Shown here: positions 52,564-57,931 of the stretch, piece by piece
Layout of the letters: the number at the start of each line of letters is the position of its first letter
Numbering within the stretch: position 1 is the first letter of the stretch
NCBI RefSeq assembly: GCF_058153355.1
Contig: NZ_CM177019.1
Direction: 5' to 3' (one strand)
Length of the DNA stretch: 64,000 nt
Position numbers and translations under genes: made by a program
Notes under the pieces: model-generated
Databases searched by the model: none
What the model was told of the DNA's origin: nothing
What the model saw: only the letters and a program-made list of their open reading frames with translations

Positions 52564-52764
52564 TTACTTCTTCGGTTGATCCTTTTTCGGCCAGTCATCG
52601 TCATCGTCCCACTTATCGTTGAAATCACGATGCGGGGGAAGCTCCGGTTTGTTGGCGAGAAATTTCTTATGGTCGACGCGCTTGAGATCTTTAATCACGT
52701 TCAGCAGGACGCCTACCAAAAAGACAATCACCAGAATCCACCAATATTTAGCCAGCCAGTCCAT
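52564..52764 (-). CDS. ypfN: Small membrane protein YpfN (UPF0370)
   Basis: Start placed at [24 protein letters not shown], giving 66 aa. Confidence 0.8.
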
Positions 52765-52791
52765 GCTTATTTCCTCTTGCAGAACCACTCA

Positions 52792-53922: not shown

Positions 53923-54297
<375 letters not shown>

Positions 54298-54659
54298 TTA
54301 TGAGAATAAATACTCATTTAAGGGTGAAAACATTTTGCCTGCAAATGATTATCAAGAAATATAACATTATCGAAGTATTCAAATTAACAACTATTAAATA
54401 ATATTAAACATTTTTAACGTAAACATTAAGAATATTCATCTTGTTATCTGTCTGTATTTTAACCAGAATTAAATAAGTATTAGATGCCGTATGAATATCT
54501 CGAAATGTTGCTGTGTATCACATACAAATCATCACCGCAGGACCATAGTATTTACATAAGGTTTGTCCCCCGGAGGTAGTCATCGCAGCAATCGAGTAAA
54601 TTAGCTTCACCACGGTATATTGTTTCCGTAGAATACCCATAATTATAAGAGAGGTTGTT

Positions 54660-54719
54660 ATGATTGAACGTGAACTGGGGAACTGGAAAGACTTTATCGA
54701 AGTTATGCTTCGTAAGTAA
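54660..54719 (+). CDS. ypfM: 19-aa small protein YpfM
   Basis: ATG..TAA encoding MIERELGNWKDFIEVMLRK after AGAGAGG; absent from the ORF track because of its size. Confidence 0.55.
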   Translation: MIERELGNWKDFIEVMLRK

Positions 54720-54780
54720 TTCCTGAGACAAAGTACAAACAGAAAGTACCTGCTGAACAGGTTCTTTATCGGAAAGTTGA

Positions 54781-54811
54781 AAAAGGCGACACATTGGTAT
54801 GTCGCCTTTTT
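54781..54811. terminator. Bidirectional intrinsic terminator between ypfM and acrD
   Basis: Stem ggcgac/gtcgcc flanked by aaaa and ttttt. Confidence 0.65.
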
Positions 54812-54817
54812 AATTGC

Positions 54818-57800
54818 TTATTCCGGGCGTGGCTTCAGCGGAAAGCGGCGGCGCACCAGCACAAAGAACAGCGGCACGAAGTAAATAGCCAGAATCGTGG
54901 CCGAAATCATCCCGCCCATTACGCCAGTACCCACCGCATGCTGGCCACCGGAACCGGCCCCTGTGCTGGTTGCCATTGGCAATACGTCGAAGATAAAGGC
55001 CAGAGAGGTCATCAGAATCGGACGTAAACGCTGACGGCAGGCGTGGAGCGTCGCTTCAAACAGGTCGTGACCTTTTTGGTTCATCTCGTTAGCAAATTCG
55101 ACGATCAGGATGGCGTTTTTCGCCGATAAACCAATCACCGTTAACAGGCCTACCTGAAAGTAAACGTCGTTTTCCAGCCCGCGAAGCCAGGTTGCCAGCA
55201 GCGCGCCGATAACGCCCAGCGGCACGACCAGCATTACCGAGAACGGCACCGACCAGCTTTCATACAGCGCCGCCAGACACAGGAATACCACCAGCAATGA
55301 AATGGCATACAGCGCCGGAGCCTGCGCGCCGGAGAGTCGCTCCTGATACGACATCGCCGTCCATTCCAGACCAAAGCCGCTTGGCAACTGCTTCACTAAC
55401 GATTCCATAATATCCATCGCCGTACCGGTGCTGACCCCCGGCGCGGCTTCCCCGACAATCTCTACCGCTGAATAACCGTTATAGCGTTCCAGACGCGGCG
55501 AGCCTGTTTCCCAGCGTGAGGTCGCGAAAGCAGAGAAGGGGACCATGCCACCATCTTTATTTCGTACATACCAGAGATTGATGTCATCTGGCAGCATGCG
55601 ATATGGCGCAGCGGCCTGCACATAGACTTTCTTCACGCGACCGCGATCCATAAAGTCATTCACATAGCTCGAACCCCACGCGGTTTGCAGCGTGTCGTTA
55701 ATATCGTCGATAGCAACGCCCAGCGCCTGAGCTTTACGCTGATCGATATCAATCTGCAACTGCGGACTGTCGTCGAGGCCGTTATGGCGTACACGGGTTA
55801 ACTCCGGATTTTCCGCCGCCAGAGCCAGCAACTGGTTACGTGCTGCCATCAGCGCATCGTGACCCGCACCAGCGTGGTCCTGCAACTCCATATCAAAACC
55901 CGCAGAACTGCCAAGGCCACTAATTGCTGGCGGGCTGCTGGCGATAACGCGAGCTTCTTTAATCTTATTAAATTCCTTCGTTGCACGTTCGATAATGGCA
56001 AACGAGGTGCCGGTCTTACTGTCGCGTTCGCTCCAGTCTTTCAGGCGGATAAACATTCGCGCCACGTTTTGCCCGTTACCCCCAGGGCCAGAACCAACGG
56101 TGGCAAACACCGACATGATGTTGTCTTTTTCATGGGTGAAGTAATATTTCTCGATTTGCTCAACGACTTTCAGGGTCTGTTGTTGGGTTGAACCGCTGGG
56201 CAACTGTACCGAGGTAGTAAACATGCCACGGTCTTCCAGTGGCAAGAACGACGTCGGCAAACGCAGGAACAGGAACACCATGCCGCCAAGCAGCAGGACA
56301 TAAATCACAATCCAGCGCAGGCTACGGTGGAGAATTTTTGCTACCCCTTTTTCGTAGCGTTCGGCGTTACGATTAAACATCTGGTTAAACCAGGCAAAAA
56401 AGCCTTTTTGTCCGTGATGCTCACCTTTTTTCAGCGGCTTAAGTAGCGTGGCACACAGAGCCGGAGTGAGGATCATTGCTACCAGTACTGACAGCACCAT
56501 CGCCGCAACAATGGTAATAGAAAACTGGCGATAGATAGCTCCGGTGGTGCCACCGAAGAAGGCCATTGGCACAAATACCGCCGACAGCACCATCGCAATC
56601 CCGACCAGTGCCCCCTGGATCTGCCCCATCGATTTACGTGTGGCTTCGCGAGGAGTGAGTCCTTCCTCACTCATAATACGTTCGACGTTTTCCACCACCA
56701 CGATGGCGTCATCCACCAGCAGACCGATCGCCAGCACCATCGCGAACATGGTTAAGGTGTTGACGCTGTAACCGAAGGCGTAAAGTACGGAGAAGGTTCC
56801 CATCAACACCACCGGCACGGCGATAGTTGGTATCAGCGTGGCACGGAAGTTTTGCAAGAACAGATACATAACGAGGAAAACCAGGGCGATAGCTTCCAGC
56901 AGCGTTTTCACCACGTCTTCAATGGAGGCTTTAACAAATGAGGTGGTTTCATATGCCACCTTGTATTCCAGTCCGTGTGGGAAGTACTGCGCCAGTTCGT
57001 CGAGACGATTGAGTACCAGCTCCGCTGTTGCCATTTCGTTCGCGCCGGAGGCCAGTTTTACCCCCAGCCCGGAGGCTGGCTTACCGTTGAAGCGGCTGAG
57101 ATAATCGTATTTCTCTGCCCCCATTTCCACGGTGGCGACATCGCCCAGCCTTACTTCTGAGCCGTCCTGATTCACCCGTAAGGTGATATCGCGGAACTGT
57201 TCTGGTGTTTGCAGCAGTGACTGGGCGTTAATGGTGGCGTTGAGCGCCTGCTTATCGACGGAAGGCGTACCACCAAGTTGCCCAACCGCAATCTGCGCGT
57301 TCTGTGACTCAATGGCATCAGTGACATCTTTAGCCGTCATCTGAAAACTGTTGAGTTTCGCCGGGTCCAGCCAGATACGCATTGAATATTGCGAACCATA
57401 GGCATCGATATCCCCGACGCCATTCACGCGGCTTAATGGGTCCTGAATATTACTGGCAACGTAATCGGCAATATCCTGCTTATCCATCGAACCATCGGTA
57501 GAGACGAAGGCAATGGTAAGAATGTTGGTATCGCCGGTTTTACGCACCGTCACGCCCTGATTTTGCACCGCCTGCGGCAACTTTCGCATGGCTGATTGCA
57601 GCTGGTTTTGTACTTGCTGCACTGCTTCGTCCGGATCGGTGCCCGCTTTAAAACTTAAGGTGACAGATGCCTGACCGGTGCCACTGCTTTGAGACGACAT
57701 ATACATGAGATTATCGAGGCCGGTCATATTTTGCTCGATAACCTGGGTCACGGTGTTTTCCAGCGTCTGAGCCGATGCGCCGGGGTAGTTAGCGGTTACT

Positions 57801-57931
57801 CGCACGTTAGGCGGTGCAAGATCCGGGTATTGTTCAACGGGCAATGAGAAAATCGCCAGGGTTCCTGTCAGACACAACAGGATTGCCAGCACCCAAGCAA
57901 AAATGGGGCGATCAATAAAGAAATTCGCCAT
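54818..57931 (-). CDS. acrD: RND aminoglycoside efflux pump AcrD
   Basis: 1037-aa ORF beginning [23 protein letters not shown] with 12-TM RND architecture. Confidence 0.95.

Follow-up and report, generated by a model that had tools for sequence, protein, structure and literature searches.

The reading frame at positions 54660–54719 of the 64,000-nucleotide stretch of DNA analyzed here (the window) raises the question of whether an open reading frame (ORF) of this size is a gene and, if so, what its product may do. The frame lies on the plus strand and consists of 19 codons followed by TAA. Its sequence is ATGATTGAACGTGAACTGGGGAACTGGAAAGACTTTATCGAAGTTATGCTTCGTAAGTAA (ATG ATT GAA ... AAG TAA), and direct reading and translation give the product MIERELGNWKDFIEVMLRK, so the ATG-to-TAA frame described in the original prediction is present in the window. 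The prediction had also remarked that the frame was missing from the program-made list of ORFs. This is the case, and the omission is a matter of length only, because the list has a minimum of 20 amino acids and the product has 19. Frames of comparable size are common in this DNA. On its two strands, the window holds 413 ORFs of 15–30 codons that begin with ATG, 18 of which have a Shine-Dalgarno (SD)-like motif 4–11 nt upstream; 39 ORFs have exactly 19 codons, two of them with such a motif. A 19-codon ORF alone is not beyond chance. The significance of this one derives from its identity to an annotated gene and from its conservation, not from its mere presence.

The gene and its two neighbors are located as follows.

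54660–54719, plus strand: ypfM coding sequence (19 codons and TAA).
53923–54279, minus strand: yffB (ArsC-family reductase), the divergent neighbor, with its start 381 nt from the ypfM start.
54818–57931, minus strand: acrD (RND efflux permease), the convergent neighbor, an ORF of 1037 amino acids.

Comparison with Escherichia coli K-12 MG1655 establishes the identity of the frame. All 60 nucleotides and all 19 residues are identical to those of ypfM (b4606; YP_001165325.1), and the match to YpfM that the original prediction had offered is correct. In K-12, b4606 occupies positions 2590807–2590866 of NC_000913.3 (minus strand), with acrD and yffB on either side, and is labelled "uncharacterized protein YpfM." The promoter hexamers, the SD sequence, the place of the gene, and its orientation convergent with acrD are also shared. 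Over 551 aligned bases, the window and K-12 differ at 12 positions: six in the 3′UTR, two in the terminator, three far upstream, and one beyond the terminator. There is no difference in the promoter, the 5′UTR, or the ORF, so the gene itself is unchanged and eight of the substitutions fall in the 3′UTR and terminator. In NZ_AP027764.1, a genome 100% identical to the window, RefSeq places a CDS at exactly the same bases and names it "ypfM: protein YpfM" (WP_001386977.1). The 271 bases around the ORF were found in 5424 of 5426 complete E. coli genomes, and a longer segment of 431 bases was matched in all but one of the 5426, the feature beneath it being "ypfM: protein YpfM."

The signals that surround the ORF are those of a small transcription unit.

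54606–54611, plus strand: −35 hexamer (TTCACC) of the ypfM promoter, from a consensus scan.
54629–54634, plus strand: −10 hexamer (TAGAAT) of the ypfM promoter, from the same scan.
54647–54654, plus strand: SD sequence AAGAGAGG, read from the sequence, 5 nt before the ATG.
54720–54779, plus strand: ypfM 3′UTR, poorly conserved, with a small hairpin at 54748–54762.
54780–54811, both strands: intrinsic terminator hairpin (A5-GGCGACA-loop-TGTCGCC-T5), common to the convergent genes ypfM (plus strand) and acrD (minus strand).

The promoter hexamers with their 17-nt spacer (TTCACC-17-TAGAAT, 54606–54634) agree with the consensus at nine of 12 positions and form the sole promoter-like site within 54200–54900. 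Identical −35 and −10 hexamers are given for ypfM in a study of RpoD by genomic SELEX (PMC3946193). From the usual promoter spacing, transcription would start at about 54641–54642, leaving a 5′UTR of about 18–19 nt. An mRNA that begins near 54641 and ends just past the hairpin at 54780–54811 would be about 175 nt long. The purine-rich ribosome-binding site that had been predicted upstream of the ORF corresponds to AAGAGAGG, and this motif or a near variant of it precedes the ypfM ORF in nearly all loci of the yffB-anchored comparison described below.

The terminator begins sixty nt past the ypfM stop codon and is called on the plus strand by the terminator scan. Folded on each strand in turn, the hairpin has energies of −18.9 and −18.4 kcal/mol and z-scores of −5.2 and −6.9, with none of 200 shuffled sequences as stable. 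The description of this element as a "bidirectional terminator" just past the ORF holds in shape, since the hairpin folds well on both strands. Because the stop codon of acrD (54818–54820) adjoins the hairpin, at a distance of 7 nt, the terminator is able to serve both ypfM and acrD. Rfam matches to CsrC and Ysr186 at 54780–54811 were rejected as generic terminator-hairpin similarity, with scores of 22.9 against a gathering threshold of 61 and 16.5 against 279, respectively.

Several features of the flanking DNA were observed in addition. The intergenic setting is AT-rich, as had been stated, with a GC content of 38% around the ORF and of 23%–24% at 54300–54499. The latter segment, which separates the divergent yffB and ypfM, is thus very rich in AT. 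H-NS is marked in the ypfM-yffB spacer in the RpoD genomic SELEX study (PMC3946193). A MarA ChIP peak has been reported in the ypfM-yffB spacer of Salmonella. On the other side of the ORF, the 3′UTR and terminator (54720–54812) form a local variation hotspot that holds eight of the 12 differences between the window and K-12 in 551 bp. Identity of at least 99% to the window over 54720–54812 is found in 18–20 of 5426 E. coli genomes only, and the rest show 95%–99%. The small hairpin of 5–6 bp in the 3′UTR (ACCTGCTGAACAGGT, 54748–54762) was marked as terminator-like on either strand, and K-12 has substitutions at two of its bases (T to C and A to G) that do not make up a clean compensatory pair. 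The ypfM intergenic region is listed in one paper among the host-informative markers of E. coli (PMC11267920).

The evidence that the frame is used as a gene comes from its conservation. A comparative scan was anchored on the neighbor YffB and not on the ypfM ORF, so that there was no selection for the ORF itself. One genome per species was taken, with 1.5 kb on each side of yffB, and each of the resulting 80 loci was searched blindly in six frames. The loci include Escherichia, Citrobacter, Salmonella, Klebsiella, Enterobacter, Kosakonia, Buttiauxella, Cedecea, Dickeya, Rahnella, Yersinia, and others. A YpfM-like frame upstream of and divergent from yffB was present in 70 of the 80 Enterobacterales loci, and the second-best matches per locus scored at background level. 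The frame is an ATG-to-stop ORF of exactly 19 codons, in the same place and orientation, at 68 of the 80 loci, nearly all with an SD motif. The remaining two of the 70 are a 22-codon version in Hafnia and a 20-codon version in Yersinia artesiana. At ten of the 80 loci, the six-frame search detected no ypfM upstream of yffB.

The 68 loci with a 19-codon ORF and the window together give 69 sequences, in which there are 53 distinct nucleotide versions and 21 protein versions. Column entropy at codon positions 1, 2, and 3 is 0.24, 0.23, and 0.71, so the third position is about threefold more variable. The pooled pN/pS of the ORF is 0.16, and the Jukes-Cantor dN/dS is ∼0.11. Every degenerate third codon position in ypfM is variable, which argues for constraint on the peptide and not on the RNA sequence. 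That selection acts on the YpfM peptide rather than on its RNA is strongly supported by this codon-level comparison.

Conservation was also compared between segments, as the mean identity to the window across the 69 Enterobacterales sequences. The values are 0.73 for the −35 hexamer, 0.43 for the promoter spacer, 0.88 for the −10 hexamer, 0.89 for the SD sequence (measured over 54648–54655), 0.90 for the ORF, and 0.28 for the 3′UTR. The terminator has a value of 0.71, its stem columns being at ∼0.9 and its loop variable. As judged from the alignment, this profile is that of a self-contained protein-coding gene, and ypfM is strongly supported as a free-standing, monocistronic small-protein gene. 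The family is represented in NCBIfam by NF033843.1 (small_YpfM; an equivalog model with a cutoff of 33 bits). The 20-residue variant from Yersinia, which was found by synteny only, scores 34.2 bits with this model, and the 22-residue variant from Hafnia scores 28.8 bits against the same cutoff. The identical 19-residue sequence carries the name YpfM from the NCBI pipeline, in which NCBIfam models are used. A Pfam scan of the 20- and 22-residue natural variants matched no family.

The gene is said to have been first proposed by Wassarman in 2001, and reportedly its product was validated with an SPA tag by Hemm et al. in 2008. For the frame in the window, the original prediction made from its sequence had named the lack of a translated product as the observation that would count against it. 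The opposite has been reported, and YpfM has been seen by three forms of mass spectrometry (MS). Top-down MS detected intact YpfM, with a sequence coverage of 100% and with an N-formyl-Met form among the proteoforms; DIA detected the protein as well, and so did PRM against synthetic peptides (PMC12529367). Schmidt et al. likewise found YpfM (as given in PMC12529367). In the PRM data, every replicate from low-Mn2+ minimal medium showed YpfM, and none of the other growth conditions tested did (PMC12529367). That the ORF of the window is the translated ypfM gene is practically certain, and no observation speaks against it.

The transcript of ypfM has a history of its own as a small RNA, and Rfam has a family that coincides with part of it.

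54699–54818, plus strand: match to Rfam RF01409 (STnc250, "Hfq binding RNA"), covering the 3′ end of the ypfM ORF, the 3′UTR, and the terminator.

The STnc250 model and the window describe the same locus, the model spanning the last ypfM codons, the 3′UTR, and the terminator. At the orthologous locus of Salmonella, the model scores 112.9 bits and extends over the final 21 nt of the ypfM ORF. The orthologous locus of Escherichia albertii scores 43.1 bits, above the gathering score of 42, and the window scores 39.4 bits (E = 4e-6), under it. The window falls below the gathering score because the E. coli 3′UTR has diverged and has 32 nt in place of 7 nt of the model. RF01409 does not stand as a non-coding RNA gene at this locus, its match lying within an mRNA and overlapping the 3′ end of an ORF that is under selection. 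The "sRNA" STnc250 of Rfam is the 3′ part of the ypfM mRNA. Indeed, STnc250 of Salmonella was equated with the ypfM small ORF and classed as a small mRNA (Sittka et al., 2008; PMC2515195). The Salmonella RNA is stable and short, runs at ∼220 nt on Northern blots, and is enriched 4-fold by coimmunoprecipitation (coIP) with Hfq (PMC2515195). The ypfM transcript is also abundant in RNA-seq of S. Typhi (PMC2704369). The association with Hfq in Salmonella suggests that the ypfM mRNA is a target of sRNA control of its translation or stability.

Alternatively, the ypfM transcript could have a dual function, encoding YpfM and also acting on other mRNAs as a base-pairing regulatory sRNA. The match of its 3′ portion to an "Hfq binding RNA," its behavior as a stable short RNA with 4-fold enrichment in the Salmonella Hfq coIP, and an intrinsic terminator with a U-tail, which is Hfq-friendly, would all be in keeping with this. 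However, Hfq binding is equally expected of an mRNA that is targeted by sRNAs, and the authors who described STnc250 classed it as a small mRNA (PMC2515195). There is no conserved candidate seed outside the ORF, the 3′UTR being the least conserved segment (0.28) and differing even between the window and K-12. Within the ORF, all degenerate third positions vary, and the protein code is the only constraint that can be seen. A second function of the RNA is improbable on this evidence. The wider proposition, that either the transcript is a dual-function RNA with a regulator in its Hfq-bound 3′ region or YpfM is functionally tied to yffB (an ArsC/Spx-like reductase) or to the yffB-dapE operon, fares marginally better and is still unlikely.

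A tie to yffB is raised by the arrangement of the genes. The order in the window is dapE (minus strand), yffB (minus), ypfM (plus), and acrD (minus), the same as in K-12 and in NZ_AP027764.1. The divergent layout of ypfM and yffB is kept in 70 of the 80 loci, and this pairing is the most persistent feature of the gene context. A YpfM-YffB tie gains support because the pairing persists where acrD is absent: two Dickeya loci (L072 and L076) and Yersinia artesiana (L083) lack acrD but have a ypfM-like ORF next to yffB. Past this ORF, Dickeya has a gene for a cold-shock protein and crcB. In two Erwinia species (L071 and L078), acrD and yffB are kept and ypfM is not detectable. The persistent pairing is a weak hint of a link between ypfM and yffB/dapE and is not evidence for one. 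If such a tie were true, the role of the 19-residue helix could be to modulate YffB specifically.

The neighborhood also yielded observations on genes other than ypfM. The yffB allele of the window differs from that of K-12 at 11 nucleotides, eight of them in seven codons with amino acid changes (94% amino acid identity), and is unusually rich in replacements. None of the complete E. coli genomes carries an allele 100% identical to it, and identity of at least 99% occurs in four of 5426 only. This diverged allele adjoins a ypfM promoter and ORF identical to those of K-12. Directly downstream of dapE, at 52564–52788 on the minus strand, there is a putative small ORF of 74 codons from a GTG, which contains an internal start; it has a single hydrophobic segment and a tail that is acidic and rich in Lys. 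It is placed where K-12 has the gene for the small membrane protein YpfN (gene order from PMC7648144) and, if a gene, would be a second small-protein gene nearby. In the E. albertii locus (L005, 3266–3346), downstream on the yffB-dapE side, there is an Rfam match to naRNA4 (nucleoid-associated ncRNA 4, a REP-derived element) of 82.1 bits.

The reading of ypfM as a protein-coding gene has to be weighed against three further explanations. In one, the locus produces a purely non-coding Hfq-binding sRNA and the 19-codon ORF is fortuitous. Rfam does list the locus as an sRNA, and chance short ORFs with an SD-like motif exist in the window (18 were counted). Against this, the dN/dS of ∼0.11 and the threefold excess of third-position variation are those of a coding sequence; 68 of 80 loci, from many genera, share the ATG, the frame, the stop, and the length of exactly 19 codons; the SD sequence is conserved (0.89); and the intact protein is seen by MS (PMC12529367). 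A non-coding sRNA or a chance ORF is ruled out by the distribution of variation over codon positions, by the retention of start, length, and stop, and by the MS data, and the probability we would leave to it is very slight.

Equally slight is the probability that the frame is a leader peptide, a regulatory upstream ORF that acts by attenuation on a downstream gene. Its size resembles that of known leader peptides, and the small hairpin at 54748–54762 precedes the terminator. However, the same strand has no gene downstream for it to regulate, the terminator at 54780–54811 being followed directly by the 3′ end of the convergent acrD, and this layout refutes attenuation. The region from the stop codon to the terminator is unconserved, YpfM has no run of one regulatory amino acid, and a different gene, for the cold-shock protein, lies beyond the ORF in Dickeya.

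The least probable explanation, to which we attach next to no weight, is that the real gene is an 80-codon antisense ORF (54552–54794, minus strand) overlapping the ypfM frame: it is the longest ORF of the intergenic region and, in 54 of 69 sequences, no stop interrupts its frame over the 60 nt, but the comparative data refute it, since its open stretch ranges from 11 to 100 codons among the loci with no ORF conserved, it crosses the unconserved 3′UTR and the terminator, the variable columns are its first codon positions (the opposite of coding selection), and it is unannotated in all genomes inspected.

With ypfM taken as a protein-coding gene, the properties of its product become of interest. 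Because eight of the 19 residues are charged, with no net charge and a mean Eisenberg hydrophobicity of −0.12, YpfM is, as judged from its composition, not a membrane peptide. A small membrane protein or type I toxin was considered and rejected, the peptide having an amphipathic pattern and no hydrophobic transmembrane segment of ∼18–20 residues. The hydrophobic residues I2, L6, W9, I13, and M16 follow a 4-3-4-3 spacing, and the helical hydrophobic moment at 100 degrees is 0.546, a value reached by 2.8% of shuffled sequences (a modest p of ∼0.03, for one sequence of 19 residues). Among 23 variants, M1, E5, W9, K10, F12, I13, M16, and L17 are invariant. The initiator Met apart, the invariant residues lie between −75 and +85 degrees of the hydrophobic direction, that is, on the hydrophobic face or next to it. 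The positions that vary most (4, 15, 8, and 11) lie at −115 to −175 degrees, on the opposite face. G7 could break the helix. A profile search of the PDB returned a chance match of seven residues only (E = 1) and found no solved relative.

These properties can be combined into a model for the gene and its product. The sigma-70 promoter (TTCACC-17-TAGAAT) would drive a transcript of about 175 nt. It is strongly supported that the strong SD sequence AAGAGAGG and the ATG at 54660 direct translation of MIERELGNWKDFIEVMLRK and that transcription stops at the hairpin of 54780–54811, which the convergent acrD also uses. YpfM may then exist as a soluble peptide with no net charge that folds as a single amphipathic α-helix, with E5, W9, K10, F12, I13, M16, and L17 lining one face. 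This conserved face could dock onto a larger protein and modulate it, as other bacterial microproteins do. Drawn as it is from residue patterns, the mechanism of an amphipathic helix that binds a partner is the best supported of those considered but is put forward tentatively, as a possibility distinctly weaker than the assignment of the gene itself.

YpfM can also be compared with other small proteins of E. coli. MntS, AzuC, and MgtS (listed in PMC12529367) are, like YpfM, proteins of <50 amino acids with their own promoter, SD sequence, and terminator, which length cutoffs had left out and which tagging or MS revealed. By analogy with them, YpfM likely acts by binding a larger protein. YpfM, MntS, and AzuC were all detected in low-Mn2+ minimal medium (PMC12529367). 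In contrast to MntS, AzuC, and MgtS, YpfM is much shorter (19 amino acids) and has no transmembrane segment.

Overall, the best explanation of the locus is, with little room for doubt, the known small-protein gene ypfM of E. coli. The observation that drew attention to it was correct but ordinary, the gene being already known, annotated, and experimentally detected. As a discovery it matters little, since ypfM is annotated in K-12 (b4606), has its own NCBIfam model, and has been seen by MS. It serves instead as a clean positive control, in which a reading from sequence only recovers a genuine gene of fewer than 20 codons of the kind that ORF tracks with a length threshold drop. The comparative data provide a coding signature across Enterobacterales that is unusually clear for a gene of 19 codons. 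For work on the function of YpfM, concrete starting points are offered by the putative helix with its one conserved face and by the retained pairing with yffB.
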